In this document: piece after piece, positions 6,180-63,579 of the stretch
Numbering within the stretch: the first letter of the stretch is position 1
Layout: every line of letters begins with the position of its first letter
IMG/VR virus record: IMGVR_UViG_3300047320_000132
Span: 67,101-131,100 of that record
Source: a virus
Taxonomy: Duplodnaviria; Heunggongvirae; Uroviricota; Caudoviricetes
Direction: 5' to 3' (one strand)
DNA length: 64,000 bases
Program-made: the position numbers and the translations under genes
The notes under the pieces: model-generated
Told to the model about the DNA's origin: nothing
The model's input: the letters and a program-made list of their open reading frames with translations, nothing else
Database searches by the model: none

Positions 6180-7019
6180 ATGAACGACAACGTACAAACT
6201 ATCGAACAAATCCGTCACCTAGACTTCAAGGCGCTAGGTGACATGCATAAGAAATATGAGAAGAACTACTTCAGTGAAAAACTGATGCCTGGTCTTCCCA
6301 CGGTCATCCGTTTCGACGGCAACGCTTTTCACACGTTCACAAAGAACCTTAGCAAGCCTTACGACAAGGATCTGGCACAGACATTCCAATGCACGGTCGA
6401 CGATCTGATTCGAGATTTGAATCCTGATCTCGCATATCATCAAAGCGATGAGATCAGCCTCTTCTGGTTCAATCTCGATACTGAGAAACCTCTTGAGTTT
6501 GATGGTAGCGTTCAGAAGTGGTTGAGTGTGTATGCAGCAAAGTGTTCGGTTATTTTTAACTCGTACCTGCAGGGCTTTCTACCAAACAAGTTTGCTGAAC
6601 GCCCAGTCTTCGATGCTCGGGTATATCAGTATCCTCGTTGGGACCTGGCATACGATTATTTTATCTGGAGGCAGTGGGACGCCAGAAAGAATAGCGTAAG
6701 CATGGCTGCACACAGTGTCTTTTTTCATGGTGAACTTCACAAGAAGAACACTGCTGAGAAAATTGAAATGTTACGTGAGAAAGGCATCAACTTTGCAGAG
6801 TACCCAGAGTCGTTCCGTCAAGGCACGTTCACCCGTAAAGTTAAGAAGATCATGCTGATCGATGACGGAACCTGGAATCGTATCCCGGAGAAGCATCGCG
6901 GTAGCAGGGAAGTAGAACGTAGTGCGATCGTGAGGCTCACGAACATTCCGAAGCTTACGTCGTTGACGGTAAGCGATGGTAGTTTCAGGCTCTTCCACGA
7001 TCAAGCCAACGTTGCCTAA
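6180..7019 (+). CDS. Thg1-like protein (tRNA-His guanylyltransferase family 3'-5' nucleotidyltransferase)
   Basis: 279 aa. VIRFDGNAFHTFTK and AYHQSDEISLFW align to the Thg1/TLP catalytic motifs (VVRxDGRGFHKFTK, GQSDEISFVF). Confidence 0.65.
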   Translation: MNDNVQTIEQIRHLDFKALGDMHKKYEKNYFSEKLMPGLPTVIRFDGNAFHTFTKNLSKPYDKDLAQTFQCTVDDLIRDLNPDLAYHQSDEISLFWFNLDTEKPLEFDGSVQKWLSVYAAKCSVIFNSYLQGFLPNKFAERPVFDARVYQYPRWDLAYDYFIWRQWDARKNSVSMAAHSVFFHGELHKKNTAEKIEMLREKGINFAEYPESFRQGTFTRKVKKIMLIDDGTWNRIPEKHRGSREVERSAIVRLTNIPKLTSLTVSDGSFRLFHDQANVA

Positions 7020-8983: not shown

Positions 8984-10679
8984 ACGTATCGCACAGAAAG
9001 CTAAAAAACCTATAGCAGAATTATTGGAAGACAAGATTGTAGAAAAAGCTGTAGAGGCTCCTGCTGAAAAGAAGAGCAGGAAAAAGAAAGAGCAGACAGT
9101 AGTTGAAATTCCTGAAGAGAAAAAAATCTACCGTACATATGAAGACTTCGATTTCTCCGATTTGAATACATATGCGGGTATTGACTGTATTGTCACTTCT
9201 GAGATTTTGACAGCGCTTTGGCCTGATCTTGTGAAACCACAAGAGTTACTAATGCCCAATAGATCAGGCCAACCTACGAAGATAAAAGCTCCGGGTATTA
9301 TCAAGTCTGTAGTTGAAACGGAAATGATGTGCCATGAGTTCATTATAAATCTTGAAATTAATGGCATGCTTTATGATATAGAGCGTAATAGGGCTATTTC
9401 AAAGCAGATGATTGAAGAGGTCGCTGAGTTTGATGAACGTATTTTTACTGCACTTGGTAAGAGAATAAATCTGGATTCAGGCGTTGAAGTTTCGAAACTT
9501 CTTTATGATGAACTTGGATTTGAATCACCTTTCAAAACCAAATCAGGAGATGATGCAACGGATGGGGCCGCACTTTTGACGTTGGCTGGATTAAATCCCC
9601 TGGCCAATATCTACGTAACTCCAGATCCTAAGCTTCAGTTCCTGGCGGATATGGCTAAGCGGAAGGATATTAATAGCGTCCATAATACGTTCATTAAGAC
9701 CTATGTAGAAGACTTCGTTAAGAGAGATGGGCGGATTCATCCTAGTTACAACTTGTTTGGAACAAGTAGTTTTAGGATCACATCGGATAATCCTAACTTA
9801 ACTCAGCTGCCACGCCCAAAGCACGGCTATAATGTGCGGGAGTGTTACACCATACCGAATGGATATGTCTTTATCGCCTTTGACTTCTCCTCCGCTGAGG
9901 TGAAGATTCTAGGGGCGATTTGCAAAGACAAGAATATGCTTAAGGCAATTGCCGAAGGGTTGGATTTCCACTCGTATTCGGCAAGTGCAATGATGGGCGT
10001 ACCTTACGACGAATTTATTCATATTCTTGAAGATGATTCACATCCGTTGAAGAAAGAATATAAACGGATGCGTCAAGTTGCAAAAGTTTTAACCTTCAGT
10101 TTGCTTTACGGCTCTTCTGTTAATGGTATTGCAATGCAGCTAGCTCTTACTAAAGAGAAAGCACAAGAGTTGATGGATATGTATTTCAAGGCGTATCCGG
10201 GTGTCAAGGACTACATTGAGGAGTCGCATCAGATGGCTCTGTTGAATCAGAAGGTTTGGACTCCGTTTGGTCAGTACAAGCATGAGTATGTTGCCCAACC
10301 TGCATTCAAGCGTACTGCAGCATATAATGCATCTCTGCGGAATGCCCAGAATGTTCGTATTCAGAGTGCAACGTCTACGCTTGGTCTGGTAACGTTTGCA
10401 CACCTGGATCAGGCTATTCAAAAGATTGATCCTCGTTGTAAGAGTATTTGTACCGTATATGATTCGGTAGAATTTGAAGTACCGATTGAACGTGCAGCAG
10501 AAGTGATCGAAACAGCGTTCTATTACATGAACGAATGGCCCGTAGAGCATTTCGATTGGCTGGACCTTCCGATTGGCGTGGAAGGTGAAATTGGTTTTAA
10601 CTGGGGTCAGGTAAAAGAAGTGAAGCCTGGCATTACGCAGCAAGGTGTGAATGATATGTTGATGAAGATGAGAGCGTAA
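8976..10679 (+). CDS. DNA polymerase I-like (family A), polymerase domain
   Basis: 567 aa. Motif A DFSSAEVKILG, motif B RQVAKVLTFSLLYGSS, motif C VYDSVEFEV. Confidence 0.85.
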   Translation: MVKRIAQKAKKPIAELLEDKIVEKAVEAPAEKKSRKKKEQTVVEIPEEKKIYRTYEDFDFSDLNTYAGIDCIVTSEILTALWPDLVKPQELLMPNRSGQPTKIKAPGIIKSVVETEMMCHEFIINLEINGMLYDIERNRAISKQMIEEVAEFDERIFTALGKRINLDSGVEVSKLLYDELGFESPFKTKSGDDATDGAALLTLAGLNPLANIYVTPDPKLQFLADMAKRKDINSVHNTFIKTYVEDFVKRDGRIHPSYNLFGTSSFRITSDNPNLTQLPRPKHGYNVRECYTIPNGYVFIAFDFSSAEVKILGAICKDKNMLKAIAEGLDFHSYSASAMMGVPYDEFIHILEDDSHPLKKEYKRMRQVAKVLTFSLLYGSSVNGIAMQLALTKEKAQELMDMYFKAYPGVKDYIEESHQMALLNQKVWTPFGQYKHEYVAQPAFKRTAAYNASLRNAQNVRIQSATSTLGLVTFAHLDQAIQKIDPRCKSICTVYDSVEFEVPIERAAEVIETAFYYMNEWPVEHFDWLDLPIGVEGEIGFNWGQVKEVKPGITQQGVNDMLMKMRA

Positions 10680-12173: not shown

Positions 12174-13181
12174 ATGGGCGGTAATGCACTCAAACTTCAA
12201 ACAGTCAGATTAGAAAAAAAGTACTATGAACACGTAGCTGCTGGGACTTCTGATGTTTTGAAACAGGCTTTTCCCGATGCTAAGGTTGCAGTTATTCCTG
12301 CGTATGAAGAAAAGGAAAGCTTTGGAGATTTGGACATTCTGATTTCAGGCATCCCGATGGATAAGCTTCAGGAGTTTGTGGAGAAGGCTTTAGTTTCTCC
12401 TGAATATCATCAAAACGGTAACGTCCTGTCGTTCGGTTTAGAAATCACAGCTCTGTTGATGAAACGGGCTATTTTTCAAATCGACTTCATCACCGTGCCT
12501 GACGAAGATTTCGACTTCGCTTTGAAGTACTTTGCCTATAACGATTTAGGCAATCTTATCGGCCAGACTGCTCATGGCGTTGGACTTAAGTTCGGCCACG
12601 ATGGTCTGTGGTATAAATACATTGTAGATACTCAACTTGTCAAAGAAATTTGCATCACGAAAGACTTCGCTGTGGCCCTTCATCTTCTGGGCTACAGCAT
12701 GTTTGAGTACAACGCTGGTTTTCGAAATCTGGAAGACATTTTCGTTTTCACTTGTAAAAGCAAATTCTTCACTACGTGGAATTATCAACTAGAGAATCGA
12801 AACGCTGTTGGCCGTGTACGGGATAAGAAACGCAAGACGTACATGGATTTTCTGGAATGGATGAAAGACAAGGATCTTCCGTCCGAACGTATGCCGAGGG
12901 ATCATGGATTTCTTATCGCCGCAAAAGAACGTCCAGACGTCGCAATGGAATTTATCCACGCCACGTTTGACTACTTCAGAGTCGAAAGAGTCAAGAAGAA
13001 GTTCAACGGTGAATTCGTTGGGCTCTGGACGGGGTTACAAGGCAAAGAGCTTGGCGGATTTATGGCGGACTACCGAGGAAACGACCGTGAAGCGTTTCTG
13101 AAGAGAATTGAGTCTATGACTTCAGAACAAGTTGAAGTCCATGTTAAACACGTATTCGAAGAATGGAGAAAGCAGCTATGA
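12174..13181 (+). CDS. putative Pol-beta-superfamily nucleotidyltransferase
   Basis: 335 aa. ESFGDLDILISG fits the minimal NTase G[SG]...DxD motif. Sits between the RNase H gene and the Hen1/Pnkp genes. Confidence 0.4.
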   Translation: MGGNALKLQTVRLEKKYYEHVAAGTSDVLKQAFPDAKVAVIPAYEEKESFGDLDILISGIPMDKLQEFVEKALVSPEYHQNGNVLSFGLEITALLMKRAIFQIDFITVPDEDFDFALKYFAYNDLGNLIGQTAHGVGLKFGHDGLWYKYIVDTQLVKEICITKDFAVALHLLGYSMFEYNAGFRNLEDIFVFTCKSKFFTTWNYQLENRNAVGRVRDKKRKTYMDFLEWMKDKDLPSERMPRDHGFLIAAKERPDVAMEFIHATFDYFRVERVKKKFNGEFVGLWTGLQGKELGGFMADYRGNDREAFLKRIESMTSEQVEVHVKHVFEEWRKQL

Positions 13182-13778: not shown

Positions 13779-13788
13779 TTGGTATAAG
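13779..13788 (+). promoter_or_regulatory. TTGGTATAAG promoter motif upstream of hen1
   Basis: TCTTGGTATAAGAAAAGTATTGTGG, 70 nt before the hen1 start. Confidence 0.45.
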
Positions 13789-13856: not shown

Positions 13857-15158
13857 ATGGCCGTACTTACTATCGGGTCTTCGAACCCCAAGTTTTCCTG
13901 GATCATTTCCAAGAACCCTGCAACGATTCGTGAAAGCGCAGAGCCCTACAAGAAATCGATCCGTCAAGGTATGGCGTATGGATGGTTCGGAGCCGATAAT
14001 CAGAGCTTTCGACTTTGGTTTAAAGACAGTCCTCAGAACTGTTCTTTTGCGGAGGGCATTGGCCAAGAGTTTGAATATCTTGACCGTACCCGTTACGCAT
14101 CTCCCTACTTGCCGATTTCGCTGATTACGAACTGTCTTGCTACAGCGTTCAAAACTGTTCAGGAAGAAGACGTTACTGAGCCGTGGAGCGCATATCTGGA
14201 AACTACGGTCGAAATTCGCAGCGCCAGCATGTTGAATCATCTGAATCAACACTTCAATGGTTCCTTCGGGTTGGACAATGGGTACAGCTTCGTAGCCGAG
14301 CATATTGCAGGCTGTGCGTACAAGGTCACTATCTCGGGACCTACCGTTCACGAAATGCTCAATGCGGCAATGGTAATTTTCCTGATGTTCTGCGTTTCGA
14401 CAAAGAGCATCTATGTCAACCTCAAGGGCGATATCGTTGAGAAGTACATTGCTGCGATCAATCGTATCAATGCACCGTACTTCATTCGTTACCTCTTCAA
14501 ACGGAATGTATTTTCAAATCGTGACACATTTCTTAAGAACAAATCGCTGCTTGATACGGACACGATCAACCTCTGGCACGGTGACACCCTTGCTCAGCGT
14601 AAAGAAGCTATCTTCCCCCACCTGGGAGGAGGAGCGACACTCGTTGACATTGGGTGCGGTGAACTCAATTACACGCTCCCACTCAGTTCGAAATATGAAC
14701 AGGTCCTTGCGTTTGAAGCGGATGACGAACTCCGCGAGAACATGCTTGAAAAACTCAAGGGACGAGAAGTCGAAAACGTTATTCTCCGAGATGCTGCAAC
14801 TCCCGAATCGATTGATGAGTGTTCCTTGCTCTTTAGCGGAGCAGACGTGCTCATCACAGAAGTTCTGGAGCACATTCCTCTTAAAGATGCAAAACAGCTT
14901 GTTGATGCCGTTCTGAAGACTGACTTTAACAAGTTGGTTATCACGGTTCCGAACAAGGCTTTCAATGTGAATTATCTGATGACAGAAGATCAGTTCCGTC
15001 ACGATGATCACAAGTGGGAAATGAATGAACAGGACTTCTACGATTGGTTCTGGAAAATCTCTAAGTCCCATGCAGTTTCAACTATCGGCCAAGGTATCGG
15101 CGATGCGGTAAATGGCGTTCACACTTCGACGATGCTTGTCGTAACGAAAAACAAGTAA
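13857..15158 (+). CDS. hen1: Hen1-like RNA 3'-terminal 2'-O-methyltransferase (partner of Pnkp)
   Basis: 433 aa. The C-terminal SAM methyltransferase motif I LVDIGCGELNY matches bacterial Hen1. The gene sits immediately upstream of the Pnkp-like gene. Confidence 0.7.
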   Translation: MAVLTIGSSNPKFSWIISKNPATIRESAEPYKKSIRQGMAYGWFGADNQSFRLWFKDSPQNCSFAEGIGQEFEYLDRTRYASPYLPISLITNCLATAFKTVQEEDVTEPWSAYLETTVEIRSASMLNHLNQHFNGSFGLDNGYSFVAEHIAGCAYKVTISGPTVHEMLNAAMVIFLMFCVSTKSIYVNLKGDIVEKYIAAINRINAPYFIRYLFKRNVFSNRDTFLKNKSLLDTDTINLWHGDTLAQRKEAIFPHLGGGATLVDIGCGELNYTLPLSSKYEQVLAFEADDELRENMLEKLKGREVENVILRDAATPESIDECSLLFSGADVLITEVLEHIPLKDAKQLVDAVLKTDFNKLVITVPNKAFNVNYLMTEDQFRHDDHKWEMNEQDFYDWFWKISKSHAVSTIGQGIGDAVNGVHTSTMLVVTKNK

Positions 15159-15167
15159 GGATCAACA

Positions 15168-17591
15168 ATGAAAATTCAAACTAAACTCCACACAGTCTTC
15201 ATTTTGGTTGGCCCTTCGATGTGCGGTAAAACCACATTCTCGAAACAGTTCGAACTTGTGTTGAACTTTCAGTTGATGAAAGCAGGACTTGCTGCAGGTT
15301 CGAAGGTTGTAAACTTGAATTCTGATGCTGAACGAATGAACGTCTTGGATGATTTGAGTCTCCATCGTTACGCTCCGGTCATGATGGAAGCTTCGGAAGC
15401 AGCTTTCAACGTGATGATGGCGAAGTTTAAAGCGGCAATTGCGTTCCCGATCAACAGTGAATTCGTAATCGTTGATACTACTGGTATGAACGATACGTTC
15501 CGAAAGGAAATTCGTAAACTCGCTGAAGAAAACGAATATCGTACTGAATTGATTACGTTTGAATATCCGAACTATCAGTACTGGTCGGAATCGAATGAGG
15601 AAGAAAAACGGGTTGTAGAATCGAGCGCCAAGCGATTCAAACAAAGCGTCCTTCCAAATCTCGGTCGTAAAGATCATGATGATTGTATTCGTATCCGTGA
15701 ACGAGACGCCAAAAAGTGGACAGATCTGGAAGTTGAAATCGAAGATTTGGGCAAGTACGCAGCTACTCAGCTCTATCTCGGTCGAGACATGCAGGTGAAT
15801 ATCATCGGAGATGTACATGAACACACGGAAGCTGCTGAACAGCTTGTAGCTAAGGTCGGTGCAAATAGCATCAATGTTCTTGTCGGTGATTACATTGACA
15901 AGGGTAATGACACTGCCAAAGCAATTGCCTTCGCCAGGAAGTTTCACACCGACGGCGGCATTATTGTCCACGGTAATCACGAATCGTATGCTGTGAAGCG
16001 TATCAAGGGTGAAATCAAAAACCCTGATCTGGAGATGGAATCGAAGTATATGAGTTCGCTTGACGTTCTGTTGAAAGACGAAACGTTGGCAGCAGAGCTT
16101 GTGGACTTGTTCGATCGCTGTTCTGTTCCGTTCTTGAAGATTCACGGCAACCAAGTCCGTACAGTTTACGTAACCCATGCTCCGTGCGAGCAGAAGTATT
16201 TGGGTAAGATGAGTTCTGCAGCACTTAAGGCTCAGCGCAATCTGTACGGTGATCGAAAAGAAGACTACCGGAAGGCTTATGAGTTTATTTTCAAGGAAGC
16301 TGTTGGGAATTTTCCTTTGCATGTGTTTGGGCACGTTGCTCACAATGCAGCCAAATTGGAACATCGTAACAAGGTGTTTCTCGATACTGGGGCTGTTTAT
16401 GGCGGCAAGCTTACTGCTTTCTGTTACAAAGGAAATCGTTACTGGTTTGATTCGGTTCAGGCAGCTGAAAAGGTAACGGTTCACAAGGGTCTTCAGAACT
16501 TCTTGACGACTCCGATAGCACCTCCGCAGAAGCCGTTCAATATCTACGACTACAAACTGTCGCCGGAAGATATGAGATTTCTGAAGCGTACTATCGCAAA
16601 CCGAGTTCAGTACATTTCAGGAACTATGGCCCCTGCCCCGTCGACTAACACTGAAATCGAAAGTCTTGAAGCTGGACTTGAGTATTTCAAAAGTCGTGGA
16701 ACGAAGCGGGTCATGCTTCAACCGAAGTACATGGGTTCACGTTGTCAGGCGTATCTATATCGTGGTAAGCCGGAAGAGTGTTTCCTGGTTTCCCGCAATG
16801 GCTTCAAGATTCGCATGACAGAAGACCTTACTGTTATGATTCAGGAACTGCTTGCTAAGTACGAAGGAGAAAGTATCGACTTCTGGCAAGAAGAACTGAT
16901 TCTTGATGGTGAACTTCTGCCGTGGACGACCCTTGGTAAAAGTCTGGTTGACGAACAGTTCCGTGCGTATGAAGGTTTGGTACGTTACGAACTGGATGCA
17001 TTGGCTAACGATGAGGAATTTGCCAAGTTGGGATTCAAGACAAAGGTCGACGTCGAAGCTCGTCAGACTGACTTGAAAGTGTTCAGCGAAACACTAGACA
17101 TCTATGCTCAGGAAGGCCGTCCAGAATACAGTGCATTCTCTATTCTGAAGGTTGACGGTAAGGTGTTTGGTGACAAATTCCAGATTGCAGATTCCTTTGA
17201 CTTGGTTAACCAGGACGACATCGTAATCATCGACCTTGAAAACGATAAAGAGGCTTTGGAAAATGCAAAGACTTTCTTCAACTGTAAAACCGTTGATGAA
17301 AAGATGGAAGGCCTTGTAATCAAGCCTCTTGACGGTACGGCAGATGTTGCACCGTATATGAAGGTTCGGAATGAAAATTACCTGACTCTTGTGTATGGCT
17401 ATGATTACAAGAACCGTTATGAAGCCCTGTGTCGTCAAAAACGTGTCGGCGGTAAGCTGAAGGTTTCTATCAAGGAACACGATCTTGCACTGGCAATGCT
17501 GACAGCAGACAATGGCCCTGCTCTGACTGAACTGGTTGTGAAAATGATCTCGCAACTGAATGAAGAAAAGACGCTGGATCCGCGTTTGTAA
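15168..17591 (+). CDS. pnkp: Polynucleotide kinase-phosphatase with ligase-like adenylyltransferase domain (bacterial Pnkp-type RNA repair enzyme)
   Basis: 807 aa. P-loop kinase ILVGPSMCGKTT. Metallophosphatase motifs GDVHE, GDYIDKGND, VHGNHES. C-terminal nucleotidyltransferase/ligase-like domain around QPKYMGSRC. Domain order matches Pnkp of the Pnkp-Hen1 RNA repair system. Confidence 0.8.
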   Translation: MKIQTKLHTVFILVGPSMCGKTTFSKQFELVLNFQLMKAGLAAGSKVVNLNSDAERMNVLDDLSLHRYAPVMMEASEAAFNVMMAKFKAAIAFPINSEFVIVDTTGMNDTFRKEIRKLAEENEYRTELITFEYPNYQYWSESNEEEKRVVESSAKRFKQSVLPNLGRKDHDDCIRIRERDAKKWTDLEVEIEDLGKYAATQLYLGRDMQVNIIGDVHEHTEAAEQLVAKVGANSINVLVGDYIDKGNDTAKAIAFARKFHTDGGIIVHGNHESYAVKRIKGEIKNPDLEMESKYMSSLDVLLKDETLAAELVDLFDRCSVPFLKIHGNQVRTVYVTHAPCEQKYLGKMSSAALKAQRNLYGDRKEDYRKAYEFIFKEAVGNFPLHVFGHVAHNAAKLEHRNKVFLDTGAVYGGKLTAFCYKGNRYWFDSVQAAEKVTVHKGLQNFLTTPIAPPQKPFNIYDYKLSPEDMRFLKRTIANRVQYISGTMAPAPSTNTEIESLEAGLEYFKSRGTKRVMLQPKYMGSRCQAYLYRGKPEECFLVSRNGFKIRMTEDLTVMIQELLAKYEGESIDFWQEELILDGELLPWTTLGKSLVDEQFRAYEGLVRYELDALANDEEFAKLGFKTKVDVEARQTDLKVFSETLDIYAQEGRPEYSAFSILKVDGKVFGDKFQIADSFDLVNQDDIVIIDLENDKEALENAKTFFNCKTVDEKMEGLVIKPLDGTADVAPYMKVRNENYLTLVYGYDYKNRYEALCRQKRVGGKLKVSIKEHDLALAMLTADNGPALTELVVKMISQLNEEKTLDPRL

Positions 17592-17610
17592 TTAAAGAAA
17601 CAAGGCTTTA

Positions 17611-17620
17611 GTGGTATAAG
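17611..17620 (+). promoter_or_regulatory. GTGGTATAAG promoter motif after pnkp, heading a structured noncoding region
   Basis: GTGGTATAAGTGAATTGG. About 300 nt of noncoding sequence follows. Confidence 0.4.
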
Positions 17621-17933
17621 TGAATTGGAATAACGTATGCTTCATTTACGTCGTAAGTGAGAGGGTAGAGTAACTTTACCCATATACTCTCCCAGCTCCA
17701 AGTTCTGAAACAGAACTTTACGCTGGGTTCCGGGCCACGCCCAACGAGGTTATTCCGTAACCAGGCCGAGATGTTTTCGGCTAGCTTCGCAAGTATCTGT
17801 TCGTTTTAGATTGTTAAACCGAAAGCCAGGGAGCAACTCCCTGGTGTATAATTCGGGCTCTTGAAATAAAAGCTCGCCCGGAATACCCCTACGTGTTGCG
17901 AAGTGACCAACGTAACAAATCAAGGAGAAATTA

Positions 17934-27179: not shown

Positions 27180-27362
27180 ATGTCTTCTAAAACAACGCAG
27201 TACAAGGACATGGTCCTGTCTACCAACACAGATCTTTTCAAAGCAGTTCAGGACGGTGAAACTGAAAAAGCTGCGCAGATGTACAAAGATCTGAACGACG
27301 CCTTCTATAAAGCTAACCCTGGGTGGAAGCCCTATCCTTCGAAGGTGAAACATGTCGCATAA
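27180..27362 (+). CDS. hypothetical small protein
   Basis: 61 aa from the internal Met. The upstream part of the track ORF overlaps tRNA-Tyr. Confidence 0.3.
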   Translation: MSSKTTQYKDMVLSTNTDLFKAVQDGETEKAAQMYKDLNDAFYKANPGWKPYPSKVKHVA

Positions 27363-27735
27363 ACAAGTTATCGTAATGCGCAAAGACCTTGGAATGCGCA
27401 AAGGGAAAATGATTGCTCAAGGTGCGCATGCAAGTCTTGCGGCGATTCTGAGTCAGATGCGAGAATACATCCACGACACTCTTGAGTTGCAGATGGATGA
27501 AAGAACCAAGCCTTGGCTCACAGGCAACTTCAAAAAAGTGTGTGTATATGTAAATTCCGAAGAGGAACTACTCGCACTCTATGCAAAGGCAAAAGCTTCT
27601 GGCATAATCACTGCATTGATTACAGACTCAGGTCTGACAGAATTTCACGGTGTCCCGACCAATACCTGCATCGCAGTTGGTCCGGATTTTGAAGATAAGA
27701 TAGATACGGTGACCGGTGGGTTGCCACTTCTATAG
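27352..27735 (+). CDS. pth2: Peptidyl-tRNA hydrolase, PTH2 family
   Basis: 127 aa. VIVMRKDLGMRKGKMIAQGAHAS...FKKVCVYVNSEEEL...ITDSGLTEFHGVPTNTCIAVGP matches the PTH2 signature along its whole length. Confidence 0.8.
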   Translation: MSHKQVIVMRKDLGMRKGKMIAQGAHASLAAILSQMREYIHDTLELQMDERTKPWLTGNFKKVCVYVNSEEELLALYAKAKASGIITALITDSGLTEFHGVPTNTCIAVGPDFEDKIDTVTGGLPLL

Positions 27736-31424: not shown

Positions 31425-31500
31425 GGGAATATAGCTCAGTTGGCAGAGCAGCGGATTCTAAATCTGAAGGTCTCGGGTTCGAGCCCCGATGTTCCTACCA
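31425..31500 (+). tRNA. tRNA with CUA anticodon (amber suppressor-type). Amino acid identity unresolved.
   Basis: A 76-nt canonical cloverleaf. Acceptor GGGAATA/TGTTCCT. D-arm GCTC-AGTTGGCA-GAGC. Anticodon stem GCGGA/TCTGA, loop TTCTAAA, so positions 34-36 are CTA. Short variable arm. T-arm TCGGG-TTCGAGC-CCCGA. A73. CCA encoded. Confidence 0.55.
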
Positions 31501-32798: not shown

Positions 32799-32868
32799 AA
32801 CAAAATAGCTCAATTGGTAGAGCGCACATACTCTTGTGAGGCTGGGGGCTCGTATCCCCCTTTTGTTA
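32799..32868 (+). ncRNA. tRNA-like element (pseudo-tRNA?) with canonical acceptor and D-arm but a defective anticodon arm
   Basis: Acceptor AACAAAA/TTTTGTT. D-arm TA-GCTC-AATTGGTA-GAGC. T-arm GGGGG-CTCGTAT-CCCCC. The anticodon region does not form a standard 5-bp, 7-nt stem-loop. Lies 28 nt downstream of a TTGGTATAAG promoter. Confidence 0.35.
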
Positions 32869-44873: not shown

Positions 44874-44985
44874 CAAGTTTCAGTGCGGGTTTGGTATAGA
44901 TGAATGTGCAGCGGTTTTCCAAACCGACGAGACGAGTTTGATACTCGTAGCCCGCTCAAAGTATCTAAGGTAGAAAGTTCTTAGA

Positions 44986-48015: not shown

Positions 48016-49164
48016 ATGTCAATTATATCCCTTAAGCACGAAATCGTGCAGCAGTATGAAATCGTTTCTACGGAACGCAAACCCAAAGAGTTTGATCTTG
48101 CAGTAGTAATGGGTCGTTTTGAACCCTATCACGTTGGTCACCAGATTCTCGTCAACAAAGCACTTCTGATCGCAGATCGTGTTCTTGTATTGATCGGGTC
48201 TGCAAACGCCCCCCGCACTATCAAGAATCCCTTCACGTACGATGAACGTGCGACGATGATCGCTATGTCTCTTACGCAAGAAGAGATGGGTACCTTGCAC
48301 GACAGCAGATTCTTGACGGAAGCTCTTGTAGACAACATGTACTCTGACGATGACTGGGCAAAACAAGTCCAGGAAAAAATCTCCTACTGGACTCCGAAAT
48401 ATGATGCTTCAACTCCAGTTGAAAAACGTAAACCAATAAAGATCGCAATCGTCGGCAATAAAAAAGACGAGAGTTCGTATTATCTCGATCTATTTCCGCA
48501 ATACGACTACGTCCCGGTAGATGAAGTAAAACTTGGATTTGACGCTACGTCTATTCGTGAAATCATCTTCGAAAAGCCGGGGTTCATCGATCTGCTGAAA
48601 AGCCTAGTTCCTTCGTACACTTTCGACTTTCTGAAAGACTTTATCAAGTCTCCGGAATACTACCGTCTGTCTCGTGAATACCAGATGGTTAAGAAGTATA
48701 AGGAAGCCTGGTCAGTGGCCCCGTATGCACCTACGTTTGTTACCGTGGATGCAGTGGTGAAGAAAGCTGGACACGTTCTTTTAGTCAAGCGGAAGGCGGC
48801 TCCTGGAGAAGGACTCTGGGCATTGCCGGGTGGATTTGTAGAACAGAATGAGAGGCTCAGAGATGCGGCACTTCGTGAACTCAAAGAAGAAACAAGCATT
48901 GATCTGCCTTCTGGTCTTCTGCTTGGTAGTATGGGCGAAGGCGTTGTTTTTGACCATCCTAATCGCAGCTTGCGTGGGCGCACTTTTACCCATGCTTTCC
49001 TCTTTGATCTTGACCGGGCGGATAAGAAAGCTGGAATCCCCAAGACCAAAGCAGGAGACGACGCAGCAGATGCCAAGTTCTTCACGTACGACGAAACCCT
49101 GAAGATGGCAGATAAGGTCTACGAAGATCATCTTCCCATTATTCGCAAGCTGGTCGGTATCTGA
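48016..49164 (+). CDS. nadM: Bifunctional NMN adenylyltransferase / Nudix hydrolase (NadM-Nudix type)
   Basis: The N-terminal cytidylyltransferase motif MGRFEPYHVGHQ is an HxGH box. The C-terminal Nudix box is GGFVEQNERLRDAALRELKEETSI. Confidence 0.75.
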   Translation: MSIISLKHEIVQQYEIVSTERKPKEFDLAVVMGRFEPYHVGHQILVNKALLIADRVLVLIGSANAPRTIKNPFTYDERATMIAMSLTQEEMGTLHDSRFLTEALVDNMYSDDDWAKQVQEKISYWTPKYDASTPVEKRKPIKIAIVGNKKDESSYYLDLFPQYDYVPVDEVKLGFDATSIREIIFEKPGFIDLLKSLVPSYTFDFLKDFIKSPEYYRLSREYQMVKKYKEAWSVAPYAPTFVTVDAVVKKAGHVLLVKRKAAPGEGLWALPGGFVEQNERLRDAALRELKEETSIDLPSGLLLGSMGEGVVFDHPNRSLRGRTFTHAFLFDLDRADKKAGIPKTKAGDDAADAKFFTYDETLKMADKVYEDHLPIIRKLVGI

Positions 49165-49868
49165 TGAGCAACACCATTTCCGAAGAAGATTTGACCATAA
49201 AGAATCTAACCGCTAAGTACTACGTTTATTCTTTAAGGGCTGAAAATGAACACATGCCGTTTTATATCGGTATAACTGCTGTTAATCGTAGACGTTTTAA
49301 CGAACATATGTGCAGAGCTAATAAGGGAGACAGTAAACTTGTCTATACCAAAATTAGAAAATGTATAAATGAAAACGTTAGAATAATTCACGAAGTATTA
49401 TTAACTTCAGAGTCTCAGAGCGTAGCCCTTGAAATGGAAAAGTTTTTAATTCAGTCGTATGGTAGGCAGGATATTAAAACAGGTATCCTTAAAAATCATA
49501 CGGCTGGGGGAGACGGTGTACATGAGTATCGTCATACTGAAAAAGCCCGTGAGAAAATGAAACTGGCTAAGCTTGGCAATAAGTTAAACGTTGGGCGTAA
49601 ACGACCTGATGTTGTTGAAAAATGGAGTAAGCCTATTTCTATGTTTAATCACAAAGGCGAATTGGTTAACACATTTAATTCTGCAAGAGAAGCTTGGAAA
49701 GAGACGGGTATTCATTTTGGCGGTATTTCAGCCGTATTAAGTGGTAAGAATAAACGAGTCAAACAAAAACCAACAGGTGATTATTTTGTATTCAGATTTC
49801 GAGAAGAATCTTGTACAAGTATTGAGCCTTTTAAAAATCAAAAATCTGGTCGTAGCCCTAAGCAATAG
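49164..49868 (+). CDS. GIY-YIG homing endonuclease between nadM and nadV
   Basis: 234 aa. KYYVYSL...PFYIGIT is the GIY-YIG motif. C-terminal NUMOD-like repeats. Ends with TAG. Confidence 0.75.
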   Translation: MSNTISEEDLTIKNLTAKYYVYSLRAENEHMPFYIGITAVNRRRFNEHMCRANKGDSKLVYTKIRKCINENVRIIHEVLLTSESQSVALEMEKFLIQSYGRQDIKTGILKNHTAGGDGVHEYRHTEKAREKMKLAKLGNKLNVGRKRPDVVEKWSKPISMFNHKGELVNTFNSAREAWKETGIHFGGISAVLSGKNKRVKQKPTGDYFVFRFREESCTSIEPFKNQKSGRSPKQ

Positions 49869-49900: not shown

Positions 49901-51298
49901 ATGTCAAACTTCAAAATTAATCCGTTACTTAACGTCGATAGTTATAAAAATTCTCATTTCTTGCAATACCCACAAGGCACTTCTGCCCTGTACTCATACG
50001 TGGAAGCACGCAAGGACAACAGCGGGTTTGGGATCAAGAACTCAACGTTCTTCGGTCTCCAGGGTTTCATCAAAGACCACTTGCTCAACGCAATCACGGC
50101 TGAGCATGTCGAGTACGCAATGAAGGTCAATTCTATTCACGGTGAGCCCTTCGCTAAGAAGGAATTTGATCGCCTGGTGAAAGTGCATGGAGGTCATGCT
50201 CCGATGGTGATCCGTGCAGTCCCGGAAGGTCTGCAAGTTCCGATGTCGAATGTGCTGGTCGATGTAATGTCTACTGACGAAGAAATGCCTTGGATCGGTT
50301 CGTTCTTCGAAACCCAGATCCTTCGTGCAGCGTGGTTTGGTACTACGGTAGCTTCCATTTCGAGGCACTGTAAAGAGATCATCTTCAAGTACCTTGTCGA
50401 TACGTGCGATAGGCCGCTCGACGAAATGCCCTTCAAGCTTCATGACTTCGGTGCCCGTGGCGCAAGCTCTACGGAGACTTCTGCAATTGCTGGCGCAGCG
50501 CATCTGATCAATTTTATGGGTACAGACACCATGCTTGGCATGGAGTATGCACATCAATTCTACGGAGCTGACTACAATGGCCTGGGTTATTCTATTCCCG
50601 CTGCTGAGCATTCCACTATTACTAGTTGGGGGCGTACGCACGAAGCTGACGCTTATAGAAATATGTGCGAAAAATTCGGCCAAGGCCTATTCGCTGTTGT
50701 CAGTGATAGCTACGATATCTTTAACGCTGTTAAAAATATCTGGGGCGGAGAGCTTCGTGACTTTGTCCTGGCCCAACCTGGTACTCTTGTGGTTCGTCCA
50801 GATTCTGGTGAACCTGTATCTGTCGTTTCTACGGTGGTCGGGCTACTGGCCGATGCGTTCGGTTACAGTGTTAACTCGAAAGGCTTTAAGGTCCTGAACA
50901 AGGTCCGTGTCATTCAAGGTGATGGTGTAAACCCTGAAAGCATCGAGAAAATTCTTGCTGCTCTTAAGTTGGCTGGATTCAGCGCCGAGAACGTTGCATT
51001 CGGCATGGGCGGGGCGTTGCATCAGAAGTTGGATCGTGATACGCTTTCGTTTGCAATGAAGGCTTCGTCTGTCTGTGTTGATGGCAAGTGGCTTGACGTA
51101 TACAAGAATCCTATTGCTGGCGGTAAAACCAGCAAGCGCGGACATCTTGCACTAGTCGAAGATAATGACGGAGTGTTGACCACGATTCGTCGTGAAAATG
51201 CTATGGGTCGTGTAGATCTGTTGGAACCTGTATATGCGAATGGTGTTTTGATTCGTGACCAGTCTTTTAGCGATATTCGTCGCAACGCAGCAATCTAA
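49901..51298 (+). CDS. nadV: Nicotinamide phosphoribosyltransferase
   Basis: 465 aa. The N-terminal NPLLNVDSYKNSHF matches the conserved NadV/Nampt start. Length and overall pattern fit Nampt. Confidence 0.8.
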   Translation: MSNFKINPLLNVDSYKNSHFLQYPQGTSALYSYVEARKDNSGFGIKNSTFFGLQGFIKDHLLNAITAEHVEYAMKVNSIHGEPFAKKEFDRLVKVHGGHAPMVIRAVPEGLQVPMSNVLVDVMSTDEEMPWIGSFFETQILRAAWFGTTVASISRHCKEIIFKYLVDTCDRPLDEMPFKLHDFGARGASSTETSAIAGAAHLINFMGTDTMLGMEYAHQFYGADYNGLGYSIPAAEHSTITSWGRTHEADAYRNMCEKFGQGLFAVVSDSYDIFNAVKNIWGGELRDFVLAQPGTLVVRPDSGEPVSVVSTVVGLLADAFGYSVNSKGFKVLNKVRVIQGDGVNPESIEKILAALKLAGFSAENVAFGMGGALHQKLDRDTLSFAMKASSVCVDGKWLDVYKNPIAGGKTSKRGHLALVEDNDGVLTTIRRENAMGRVDLLEPVYANGVLIRDQSFSDIRRNAAI

Positions 51299-60420: not shown

Positions 60421-61050
60421 AAAGTTCATGGGCCGTAGAAATGGATTATCTAATCCCAAATCGCAAGTCACAGGTTCGAGTCCTGTAACCCGCTGCAGTT
60501 GCGGGTTTAATTCAGTTGGCAGAATGGCGATTCCTGATTCTATTTCGATCTCTTGCCTATCTCAGTTTCACGAGCCGAATGTTCAAGGTTATCTACTAAG
60601 CCAAAGTTAGAATAAAGCGTATTACGCAGTTTCCGGAAACGGGATAGTACCTAGGTCTAACACCGTTGTACTCTGCTTGAGCTAAAGCTATCGCGGGTGA
60701 ATCCTGCATCTCCTTGACAATCCTTGCTCGTATCAAGTTTCACGACGAACCGAAAGCGTAGGGTTATCTACAAACTTCAATTGGTGAAAACTGTTAGGTC
60801 GAAAGACCATCTCCCTTGCACCACTTGTTCGTCTTCCGTTTATGCTGAACCGCTAGTATTGTGTTATCTCCATTATCAGGACGTATTTCAGGTTCGAATC
60901 CTGACGGCACAATTAAGAGCATTCTGTGTTCTTGGTTGTGCTGTAGTTAAACTGGTATAACGCGTAAAACGCGCAGTACACTCTTTGTTCAGCTTCAAGT
61001 TTGTGAGCCGTTCAGATTTGGATTATCCTTTTAAGATTTCCTCCAGATCA
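60421..61050 (+). repeat. five copies of an approximately 40-nt element AGTTTCAYGRGCCG...GGTTATCTAC carrying DnaA-box-like TTATCYACA cores. Two copies are followed by tRNA T-arm mimics.
   Basis: Copies begin near 60421, 60556, 60731, 60827 and 60981. GGTTCGAGTCC and GGTTCGAATCC stem-loops follow copies 1 and 4. Confidence 0.5.
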
Positions 61051-61956: not shown

Positions 61957-63579
61957 ATGTCTTTCAATTCCCTCTCTAACAATACCAACACCCGCACTCA
62001 AGCAAAGACTACGGTTCAGACCAAACCGGCTGGTAATGCTTCTGTCGCTCAAGTAAAGAACAACGCTGGCGGCTTTGTGTTTGAGGTAACGCCTCTGCAG
62101 AAGCTCGATCGTTTCCTGATCATCGGTACGAGCGGTGGTACGTTCTATCAGTCCGAGAAAGATATCACCAAGGCCAAGGTCGACGATATCGTCAAGTTGA
62201 TCCAAACGAATGGTAAGGTTGTGGTCGACCGTATCGTTGAGATCAGCCAGGCTGGTCGTGCCAAGAACAATGACTACGCGTTGCTTGCTATGGCGTTGGT
62301 CTTCACTCACGGTGACGTGGCTACGAAACTGTATGCCAAGGACAAAGTGAACCTCGTGGCTCGTACTGGCACACACTTTCTGCACTTCGTGAACTTCGCT
62401 TCCGGCCTTCGCGGATGGGGCCGTAGTCTTAAGAACGTTGCTCAAAAATGGTACTCGGATAAAACGGTAACAAATCTTGCGTATCAAGTCGTTAAGTACA
62501 AACAAAGAGACGGATGGTCGCACCGCGATGTTCTTAGACTCAGCCACGTAAAGCCTGGCGAAGACGTGGTTCGTCAAAACCTTTACAAGTACATCGTGAA
62601 GGGTCCGGAAGCGCTTGCTATAGGTGACCAGGTTCCTGAGCTTCTGATTGCAGTAGAAGAGGCTAAGACCTGCAACAAGAACAAGCTTGTACAGCTTATC
62701 GGCGAACACAGGCTTACGCATGAAATGGTCCCGAACGAAATGAAGTCGCATCCTGAAGTCTGGGAAGCACTCGTTCCGCATATGGGCCTGAATGCATTGG
62801 TTCGTAACCTGAACAAGCTGACGGCTGTTGGACTGATCAAGCCTTTCTCGGAAACGAGTAAGCTGGTCACGACCAAGCTTCTGGATGTGGAACAGCTTCG
62901 TAAGGAACGTCTGCATCCGATGTCGATTATCGTTGCTAAGAAGATCTACTCTCAAGGCAAGGGCGATAAGGGTTCGCTGGTTTGGACCCCGGACAATACC
63001 GTCAAGGATACGCTTGAAGCGGCGTTCTACCTTTCGTTCGACGCGGTGGAACCGTCTGGTAAGAATATTGTTCTGGCGCTTGACGTGTCAGGTTCAATGG
63101 GTTCGGCTATTCCGGGTGTTCCGCAGTTGACGTGTTGTGAAGGTGCTGCACTGATGGCTATGGTTTCGGCTCGTACGGAACCTTGGACTGAAGTGTTGGG
63201 CTTCGCTAAGACGTTCAAGCCGCTGAACATCACGAAGCACGATACGCTTGAATCGGCTACCACCAAGGCGCATGACTGGAACTTCGGTTCTACGAACTGT
63301 GCTTTGCCTGCTGAACATGCGCTTGCACACCGTTGGAACGTAGATGCGTTCTGTATCTATACGGACAACGAGACGTATGCTGGTAAACAGCACCCGTTTC
63401 AAGCAATGCAGAAGTATCGTCAGGGCATGAACAAGCCTGATGCAAAGCTGATCGTAGTCGGTATGGCAGTCAATGACTTCAGCATCGCAGATCCCAAGGA
63501 TCCGAACATGCTTGATGTTGTGGGCTTCGATACGCAGACGCCGCGTTTCATGTCTGAATTTATAGCTGGACGTATCTAA
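61957..63579 (+). CDS. rsr: Ro60/TROVE-domain protein (Rsr ortholog) with C-terminal vWA domain
   Basis: 540 aa. LQKLDRFLIIGTSGGTFYQSEKDI...IVKLIQTNGKVVVDRIVEISQAGRAKNNDYALLAMALVF aligns to the human Ro60 N-terminus (LHRFLCFGSEGGTYY...IRLIEDGRG...VIQEIKSFSQEGR...EPMLFALA). The C-terminal vWA MIDAS is VLALDVSGSMGS. Confidence 0.8.
   Translation: MSFNSLSNNTNTRTQAKTTVQTKPAGNASVAQVKNNAGGFVFEVTPLQKLDRFLIIGTSGGTFYQSEKDITKAKVDDIVKLIQTNGKVVVDRIVEISQAGRAKNNDYALLAMALVFTHGDVATKLYAKDKVNLVARTGTHFLHFVNFASGLRGWGRSLKNVAQKWYSDKTVTNLAYQVVKYKQRDGWSHRDVLRLSHVKPGEDVVRQNLYKYIVKGPEALAIGDQVPELLIAVEEAKTCNKNKLVQLIGEHRLTHEMVPNEMKSHPEVWEALVPHMGLNALVRNLNKLTAVGLIKPFSETSKLVTTKLLDVEQLRKERLHPMSIIVAKKIYSQGKGDKGSLVWTPDNTVKDTLEAAFYLSFDAVEPSGKNIVLALDVSGSMGSAIPGVPQLTCCEGAALMAMVSARTEPWTEVLGFAKTFKPLNITKHDTLESATTKAHDWNFGSTNCALPAEHALAHRWNVDAFCIYTDNETYAGKQHPFQAMQKYRQGMNKPDAKLIVVGMAVNDFSIADPKDPNMLDVVGFDTQTPRFMSEFIAGRI

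Follow-up and report, generated by a model that had tools for sequence, protein, structure and literature searches.

Hen1-dependent RNA repair systems of bacteria both mend broken RNA and make the mended site immune to re-cleavage, as reconstituted biochemistry has shown (PMC4411300; PMC3675462). In Anabaena variabilis and Clostridium thermocellum, the system consists of a Pnkp with kinase, phosphatase, and ligase domains and a Hen1 with an N-terminal domain and a methyltransferase, and canonical pnkp and hen1 are always co-located in one operon (PMC4411300). The other closely related system is the Pnkp1-Rnl-Hen1 heterohexamer of Capnocytophaga gingivalis (PDB 4xrp and 4xru; PMC4411300). In phage T4, a kinase/phosphatase, Pnk, and a ligase, Rnl1, mend the anticodon loop cut by PrrC (PMC7824862, PMC12776372). 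PNKP and Hen1 have also been annotated as tRNA repair in phage XacN1 by its authors (2018), where the pair lies beside 56 tRNAs, Thg1, a CCA-adding enzyme, and Pth (PMC5852040). The XacN1 annotation was the only mention of a phage PNKP/Hen1 found in the literature searched. Here, a hen1-pnkp gene pair (positions 13857 to 17591) is described from a stretch of 64,000 nucleotides (nt) of a large, uncultured Caudoviricetes virus (IMG/VR record IMGVR_UViG_3300047320_000132, positions 67,101 to 131,100), and this whole stretch is referred to below as the window. The pair belongs, as a divergent member, to a known type of system, the occurrence of which in phages was noted earlier. We consider it probable that the two genes form a bicistron encoding a complete Hen1-dependent heal-methylate-seal machine, which most likely counters tRNA-cleaving defences of the host.

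An initial annotation, made from the sequence alone, placed two adjacent plus-strand open reading frames (ORFs) here, and both are present and intact at those coordinates, separated by 9 nt. The pair and its domains are laid out as follows, in window coordinates.

13857..15158, plus strand: hen1, an ORF of 433 amino acids (aa) with a TAA stop
13866..14558, plus strand: Hen1 residues 4-234, N-terminal ligase-activating domain (PF22032, Hen1_N)
14592..15152, plus strand: Hen1 residues 246-432, C-terminal methyltransferase dependent on S-adenosylmethionine (SAM) (TIGR04074 and PDB matches)
15159..15167, plus strand: hen1-pnkp spacer GGATCAACA, 9 nt, read from the sequence
15168..17591, plus strand: pnkp, an 807-aa ORF with an ATG start
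15168..15719, plus strand: Pnkp residues 1-184, 5'-OH polynucleotide kinase of the P-loop type (AAA_33 and Foldseek)
15768..16478, plus strand: Pnkp residues 201-437, calcineurin-type binuclear metallophosphoesterase, a 2',3'-phosphatase (Metallophos and Foldseek)
16575..17588, plus strand: Pnkp residues 470-807, ATP-dependent RNA ligase with an adenylyltransferase and a C-terminal helical part (PNKP_ligase, PDB, and Foldseek)

Inspection of the sequence reveals a Shine-Dalgarno-like TAAGGA that overlaps the hen1 stop codon ahead of pnkp, and translation of pnkp may be coupled to that of hen1. The GC contents of hen1 (0.47) and pnkp (0.45) are those of the phage background (window mean, 0.46), which indicates that the cassette is not a recent insertion.

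Sequence comparison supports the assignment of the 433-aa protein as a full-length bacterial-type Hen1, an RNA 3'-terminal ribose 2'-O-methyltransferase with a ligase-activating N-domain. It matches Hen1_N with an E value of 2.6e-50 (171.6 bits against a Pfam cut-off of 27) and Capnocytophaga Hen1 (PDB chain 4xrp_C) over residues 3 to 431 with an E value of 3.4e-25 (92 bits). The C-terminal half aligns to positions 269 to 459 of TIGR04074 (E = 2.5e-17), and the solved methyltransferase domains 3jwg, 3jwh, 3jwi, and 3jwj are matched with E values of 6.5e-11 to 4.5e-9. The Hen1 identity follows from the Hen1_N domain and the full-length match to a solved Hen1, and not from LVDIGCGELNY (residues 262-272), which the initial annotation had taken as a Hen1-type sign; this motif is present, as are all of the motifs quoted there for Pnkp, but its GCGE is the generic SAM motif I of class I methyltransferases. 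Residue invariance was judged in alignments of 40 sequences, one per protein, with identities to the window proteins from 81% down to approximately 34%, and all expected catalytic residues of the kinase, phosphatase, ligase, and methyltransferase are invariant. In Hen1, these alignments show invariance of K19, P21, R36, G38, and W43 in the N-domain and of G266, G268, and E269 (SAM motif I), E335, E338, H339, R381, H382, and H385 in the methyltransferase, which contains E-x-x-E-H and RHxDH motifs. As in HEN1 structures, E-x-x-E-H and the later His are taken to be the metal ligands. More than 222 full-length Hen1 homologues were found in a collection clustered at 90%, and an exhaustive scan of 1.84 billion representative proteins yielded 315 clusters at E values of ≤1e-30, which indicates that the Hen1 family is rare.

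The 807-aa protein is supported, by sequence matches and a structural model, as a three-domain Pnkp composed of a P-loop kinase, a calcineurin-type phosphatase, and a ligase. It matches TIGR04075 with an E value of 8.1e-38 and has more than 248 full-length homologues of equal architecture in the 90% clustered collection, and its AlphaFold2 model, built from 40 homologues, has a mean predicted local distance difference test (pLDDT) of 92.2. The AAA_33 match of the kinase (residues 10-143) is below the Pfam threshold (E = 2.6e-5; 25 bits against 27), and the modeled fold resembles the C. thermocellum (Cth) Pnk structures 4gp7, 4gp6, and 4mde with a target-normalized template modeling (TM) score of 0.77 in Foldseek. 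The kinase motifs are GPSMCGKTT (residues 15-23), SDxxR (52-56), and an RxxxR lid (112-116), with G15, G20, and K21 of the P-loop, D53, R56, and R112 invariant; D-x-x-R and R-x-x-x-R are taken to be kinase elements, as in the structures of CthPnk and T4 Pnk. The phosphatase matches Metallophos (E = 2.1e-9; 38.5 bits against a Pfam cut-off of 21.5), carries GDVHE (214-218), GDYIDKG (240-246), and GNHES (269-273), and keeps D215, H217, D241, N270, H271, H337, H385, H389, and D406 invariant, along with the motifs GDxH, GDxxD, GNHE, and GH389. Its modeled fold is similar to that of CthPnkp 4j6o (TM score, 0.72) and also to lambda phosphatase 1g5b. For the ligase, PNKP_ligase (PF16542) matches residues 479 to 778 with an E value of 1.5e-22 (80.8 bits against a cut-off of 28.2), and the model has the adenylyltransferase fold of ligases, with Foldseek TM scores of 0.75 to Rnl 4xru and 0.70 to Pnkp-C 4e6n. 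The invariant ligase residues K520, G523, R543, D580, E582, E714, G715, K719, K732, and R734 represent motifs I, Ia, III, IV, and V and include the strings K520-Y-M-G523 (motif I, KxxG), E714-G-x-V-x-K719, and K732-x-R734. The full Pnkp/Hen1 domain inventory read earlier from the motifs, Hen1_N and methyltransferase plus kinase, phosphatase, and ligase, is borne out by Pfam/NCBIfam, PDB, and Foldseek. Neither of the two outcomes that the initial annotation had named as refuting it, a 433-aa protein dissimilar to Hen1 methyltransferases or an 807-aa protein devoid of the ligase-like fold, was obtained.

Like the Anabaena and Clostridium systems, the window has a kinase-phosphatase-ligase Pnkp and an N-domain/methyltransferase Hen1 encoded by adjacent, co-oriented genes, and its kinase and phosphatase folds match those of C. 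thermocellum. In contrast to these systems, the window sequences are highly divergent and phage-borne, and their ligase and Hen1 are nearer to those of the three-component Capnocytophaga system, which supplies the best solved matches for both. The ligase matches Rnl 4xru_B with 128 bits (E = 2.8e-36; 27-28% identity) and the CthPnkp ligase 3ty8 with 45.6 bits (E = 2.7e-11), and Hen1, which scores 92 bits over its full length to 4xrp_C, scores ≤45 bits to the methyltransferase domains of Cth and A. variabilis. The Capnocytophaga system and the one proposed for the window have the heal, methylate, and seal logic in common. However, the Capnocytophaga ligase is a stand-alone Rnl, whereas the window ligase occupies residues 470-807 of one 807-aa polypeptide, and the Capnocytophaga healing enzyme is a T4-like Pnkp1 with a HAD phosphatase, whereas the window has a Cth-type kinase and a calcineurin-type phosphatase, with no HAD_PNKP match to the window Pnkp in the Pfam scan. 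In addition, Capnocytophaga hen1 is unlinked from pnkp1-rnl, whereas the window genes are 9 nt apart. Since an Rnl-like ligase is joined to a C. thermocellum-type healing half, the window Pnkp is intermediate between the two characterized systems. The comparison with T4 Pnk/Rnl1 drawn in the initial annotation stands as a functional analogy, that of a phage kinase/phosphatase and ligase mending a cut anticodon loop, but T4 uses a phosphatase (HAD) and a ligase (Rnl1) of families unrelated to those of the window, which in addition has Hen1. The T4 system has no methyltransferase, so its repaired tRNA stays cleavable.

To survey related loci, IMG/VR was scanned with the Hen1 alignment, and domains were assigned with hidden Markov models made from our own alignments and checked with Pfam. 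The scan recovered 25 viral loci on contigs of 9 to 530 kb, approximately 20 of which have hen1 directly before a fused three-domain pnkp. The two genes are adjacent in nearly all of the 25 viral loci and in 22 Bacillales genomes, and homologues of Pnkp and Hen1 fall into parallel identity tiers on common contigs. Chromosomes of Bacillales (Gottfriedia, Neobacillus, Bacillus, Paenibacillus, and Listeria) carry members of the same clade, with hen1 before pnkp and a fused three-domain Pnkp, and the Bacillales/Enterococcus versions are 30-38% identical to the window proteins. The canonical bacterial order is pnkp then hen1. The initial annotation correctly read the reverse order here, but this order is normal for the clade: its presence in approximately 20 of the 25 viral loci and in the 22 Bacillales genomes makes it a clade trait and not a phage novelty. 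One 2.2-Mb metagenomic genome has the opposite order, with pnkp before hen1. The hen1-pnkp operon of Enterococcus termitis is followed by an RlaP nucleotidyltransferase (PF10127), whereas the phage has no RlaP at that position.

In the other IMG/VR loci, the healing domains are rearranged, and the Hen1 and ligase core is constant. Locus L018 and Vibrio phage RYC have an Rnl and a fusion of Hen1, kinase, and HAD phosphatase, in which HAD_PNKP was found, and Xanthomonas phage XacN1 has kinase, Hen1, and Rnl as separate genes with no adjacent phosphatase. In L022 (7354-11473), pnkp is broken in two, with the kinase encoded approximately 1.4 kb away from the phosphatase-ligase; in L027 (8247-11177), the phosphatase domain of pnkp contains an insertion of approximately 116 residues; and in L028, hen1 and pnkp are divergently oriented. 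The interruptions of pnkp in L022 and L027 may be mobile-element or intein-like. The Hen1 modules of deposited phages (XacN1 ORF197-199, Vibrio phages RYC and sm033, and Stenotrophomonas CM1/RAS14) have Hen1 proteins 28-32% identical to that of the window with an adjacent Rnl-type ligase, and none of them has the fused three-domain Pnkp of the window.

The pair is conserved throughout one lineage of 90- to 180-kb phages. Related phage-size contigs keep it at 65-81% and 41-47% identity. On a 168-kb phage contig (L005) whose proteins are 44-46% identical, the pair is kept between PolA and the ribonucleotide reductase (RNR), and this synteny at such a distance indicates long-term retention under selection. 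Megablast with the cassette and with window positions 32001-57000 found no DNA-level relatives among deposited phages. Among isolates, the DNA polymerase is most similar to those of Salmonella phage Arash (49%) and of Vibrio phages D69, D148, and D181 (46%), and the deposited-phage search gave no Hen1 match in any of these four.

Taken together with the domain comparisons, a wider reading may be advanced tentatively, as a serious possibility that we do not yet favor. The clade could represent a third lineage of Hen1 repair, with hen1 before pnkp and a Capnocytophaga-type Hen1/Rnl fused to Clostridium-type healing, which would occur in Bacillales and unrelated large phages, would have had its healing domains repeatedly reshuffled, and would serve phages as a "repair and vaccinate" counter-defence. 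No description of such a lineage was found in the literature searched, and prior cataloguing in the survey by Burroughs and Aravind in 2016 is possible.

Immunity by tRNA cleavage is a major anti-phage strategy, represented by PrrC/RloC, PARIS, Septu, retron PtuAB, and OLD, and phages are known to respond with spare tRNAs and with repair of the T4 type. In the function proposed for the window pair by homology to the reconstituted Anabaena/Clostridium and Capnocytophaga systems, a metal-independent ribonuclease would cut an RNA, most plausibly in a tRNA anticodon loop, and leave a 2',3'-cyclic phosphate and a 5'-OH. Hen1 and Pnkp would act on this break as a complex. The calcineurin-type phosphatase of Pnkp would open and remove the 2',3'-cyclic phosphate, and its P-loop kinase would phosphorylate the 5'-OH. 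The Mn-dependent methyltransferase of Hen1 would then methylate the 2'-OH of the new 3'-terminal nucleotide, and the Pnkp ligase, activated by the Hen1 N-domain, would seal the break via K520-AMP. Because the 2'-O-methyl takes away the nucleophile for transesterification, the repaired site would not be cut again. The machine would probably act early or midway in infection, neutralizing anticodon nucleases of the PrrC/RloC type, PARIS, Septu, retron PtuAB, or toxin RNases, and would work together with the tRNA array of the phage itself. Phage tRNAs and RNA repair have both been described as counter-defence (PMC7824862; PMC11555353). The lytic lifestyle presumed for this phage in the initial annotation is plausible.

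The expression of the pair can be considered from the repeated octamer TGGTATAA(G), which occurs in 20 copies in the window, compared with 1.3 expected by chance, with all 20 on the plus strand. The copies are mostly intergenic, and a conserved -35 element accompanies none of them. The elements flanking the pair are as follows.

13780..13787, plus strand: upstream copy of TGGTATAA(G), in the 81 nt between the previous ORF and hen1, 70 nt from the hen1 ATG
17612..17619, plus strand: downstream copy of TGGTATAA, 21 nt past the pnkp stop
17592-17933, plus strand: conserved, highly structured RNA of approximately 320 nt, between the pnkp stop and a 116-aa ORF/RNR operon

Further sites include 140, 3982, 6024, 24300, 32762, 45690, and 54412, and copies also lie ahead of the primase gene, Thg1, and tRNA clusters. 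From this arrangement, TGGTATAA probably represents a class of extended -10-type promoters that is specific to the phage and serves its replication, tRNA, and RNA-repair genes. The copy at 17612..17619 is invariant in all six aligned relatives and would start the next transcription unit, so hen1-pnkp appear to be a bicistron complete in itself, which would be expressed alongside the replication and tRNA genes. In a scan around the operon, canonical sigma-70 promoters and intrinsic terminators were no more frequent than expected by chance.

The structured RNA downstream of pnkp begins directly after the invariant promoter-like motif TGGTATAAG. It has a minimum free energy of -111.5 kcal/mol (z = -5.3 relative to shuffled sequences) and no match to an Rfam family. 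Predicted features include GNRA-type hairpin loops, a long-range CUUGCAAG/UUGCAAG helix, and pairing of a CUCUC segment with GGAGA, the ribosome-binding site of the ORF that follows. Scans of IMG/VR and metagenome contigs found only six sequences of this RNA, five of them distinct and all from one lineage, and among these related contigs, 24 of the 77 predicted pairs show compensatory changes. The covariation, drawn from a few related sequences, is suggestive, and the RNA is a candidate for a new cis-regulatory leader or riboswitch of the o116-nrdAB operon. In the 168-kb relative (L005), pnkp is followed by a tRNA-like element (10450-10535) whose variable arm is long, and then by TGGTATAA and a different leader.

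The pair is located in a replication and nucleotide-metabolism block, and other genes of the window include primase, PolA, RNase H, RNR, and ThyX. The neighboring features that concern RNA, or that adjoin the pair, are the following.

6180-7019, plus strand: Thg1-family tRNA-His guanylyltransferase/3'-5' polymerase homologue (Pfam)
12174-13181, plus strand: 335-aa ORF upstream of hen1 (PHROG 24943, more than 1,600 homologues)
24351-45060, plus strand: tRNA array
27352-27735, plus strand: PTH2 peptidyl-tRNA hydrolase, within the tRNA array (Pfam)
60462-60530 and 60886-60961, plus strand: two YrlA-like (Y RNA-like) elements
61957-63579, plus strand: Ro60/TROVE and vWA protein (Pfam, 8e-58 and 6e-36)

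ARAGORN predicts 22 tRNAs in the window, and two more were found as Rfam matches (32799-32868 and 44885-44956). They include known targets of anticodon nucleases, namely, Lys-UUU, Tyr, Asn, Asp, Gln, Glu, and Arg-UCU. The tRNA at 31425-31500 has a CTA anticodon of the amber-suppressor type and is labeled "Pyl" by ARAGORN. Recoding of TAG was considered and rejected, as ORF coverage gains less when TAG is read as sense than in the TGA and TAA controls. The gene content of the window, tRNAs included, is that of the "translation-apparatus protection" repertoire reported from XacN1 and from jumbo phages generally, and Thg1 and PTH2, as further tRNA-maintenance functions, have parallels in XacN1.

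The two YrlA-like elements lie in an ORF-poor stretch 1 to 1.5 kb upstream of Ro60. Their matches are sub-threshold (28 and 23 bits against a gathering cut-off of 69; E = 0.002 and 0.05), and in the first the T-arm comes ahead of the D-arm, as is typical of the permuted tRNA-like module. A copy of TGGTATAA at 60953 is inside the D-arm-like part of a Y-RNA-like element. In Salmonella, rsr and its Y RNAs share an operon with the RtcB/RtcA RNA repair genes, and on this basis the Ro60/Y-like element may share a theme of RNA protection with Hen1-Pnkp.

The 335-aa ORF has no Pfam or PDB sequence match. Its AlphaFold model (pLDDT, 94) has a palm similar to that of Pol X (beta/lambda), with a Foldseek E value of approximately 3e-7 over about 180 aligned residues, and G51, D52, D54, and D104 are invariant. 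It was considered as a counterpart of RlaP, to which BLASTP gave no significant similarity, and as a third component of the cassette, which was rejected because it adjoins hen1 only in the closest relatives and not in other Hen1-bearing viral loci.

Elsewhere in the window, three plus-strand ORFs form an NAD+ salvage cluster.

48016-49164, plus strand: nicotinamide mononucleotide adenylyltransferase-Nudix fusion
49164-49868, plus strand: homing-endonuclease-like ORF, between the two salvage genes
49901-51298, plus strand: nicotinamide phosphoribosyltransferase (NAMPT)

The salvage pair resembles the NAD-reconstitution modules that phages use in counter-defence.

Other functions of hen1-pnkp have to be weighed against these data. 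The pair might serve routine phage RNA metabolism, maturing or protecting phage tRNAs, Y-like RNAs, and small RNAs; for example, Hen1 would methylate 3' ends against host 3' exonucleases and tailing, and Pnkp would tidy processing intermediates. Eukaryotic HEN1 does protect the 3' ends of small RNAs, and the approximately 24 tRNAs and two Y-RNA-like elements of the window, which need processing, and the promoter-like motif that hen1-pnkp share with the tRNA clusters would be in keeping with such a role. We nevertheless regard it as unlikely. The strict pairing with a heal-and-seal enzyme in phages and bacteria indicates that breaks are repaired rather than ends protected, none of the tRNAs predicted by ARAGORN in the window is split or carries an intron that would call for ligation, and the only known role of a bacterial Hen1 with Hen1_N is that of partner to a ligase (PMC4411300). 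The location of the genes among primase, PolA, RNase H, the PolX-like protein, and RNR would also suit a Pnkp that acts mainly on DNA ends in replication or recombination with Hen1 as an accessory. Pnk-type kinases and phosphatases accept DNA ends, and T4 Pnk and PNKP enzymes can process them in vitro. This is very improbable given that Hen1 requires a ribose 2'-OH, that the ligase domain falls in the RNA-ligase clade of Pnkp and Rnl, and that members of the family are obligatorily paired with Hen1.

Equally improbable is a system that shields phage translation from a ribotoxin of the phage itself, used for host shut-off or the exclusion of competitors, by immunizing tRNAs pre-emptively. Methylation does confer lasting immunity to re-cleavage (PMC4411300), and the window has many unannotated small ORFs, but the scan of window proteins turned up neither a ribonuclease nor a toxin domain, which leaves this idea as pure speculation without a candidate nuclease. 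The homologous operons in Bacillales chromosomes could suggest that the cassette is inactive or decaying cargo from a bacterium, for which the chance seems negligible. The ORFs are intact, all catalytic residues are kept, the GC content matches that of the phage, and the identities of 65-81% and 41-47% in related phage-size contigs, compared with only about 35% for the bacterial versions, point to long purifying selection; the decaying-cargo explanation is therefore largely refuted by the conservation in the aligned sequences.

Several observations weigh against the proposal that hen1-pnkp form a heal-methylate-seal machine against host tRNA-cleaving defences. By its scores, the pair is a divergent sister clade and not an equivalog of the curated Pnkp and Hen1 families: Pnkp reaches 130.1 bits against the NCBIfam equivalog cut-off of 750 for TIGR04075 (bacter_Pnkp), and Hen1 reaches 62.5 bits against 340 for TIGR04074 (bacter_Hen1). 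With scores far under these cut-offs, functional equivalence is extrapolated over approximately 20-28% identity. The literature searched contained no link of Hen1 to phage anti-defence and no biochemical or genetic test of a phage Hen1 or Pnkp. The window yielded no gene for a ribonuclease or a defence system from which the substrate could be deduced, and the defence countered would depend on the host.

If the proposed counter-defence is true, phage Hen1-Pnkp would be a stronger answer to tRNA cleavage than T4-type repair, as it would mend the cut site and also make it uncuttable, which T4-type repair cannot do. Jumbo phages of Vibrio, Xanthomonas, and Stenotrophomonas also carry Hen1 modules, with their domains variously arranged. 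The window pair enlarges the sparsely sampled Hen1 family and adds to it an intermediate between two biochemically characterized bacterial systems.

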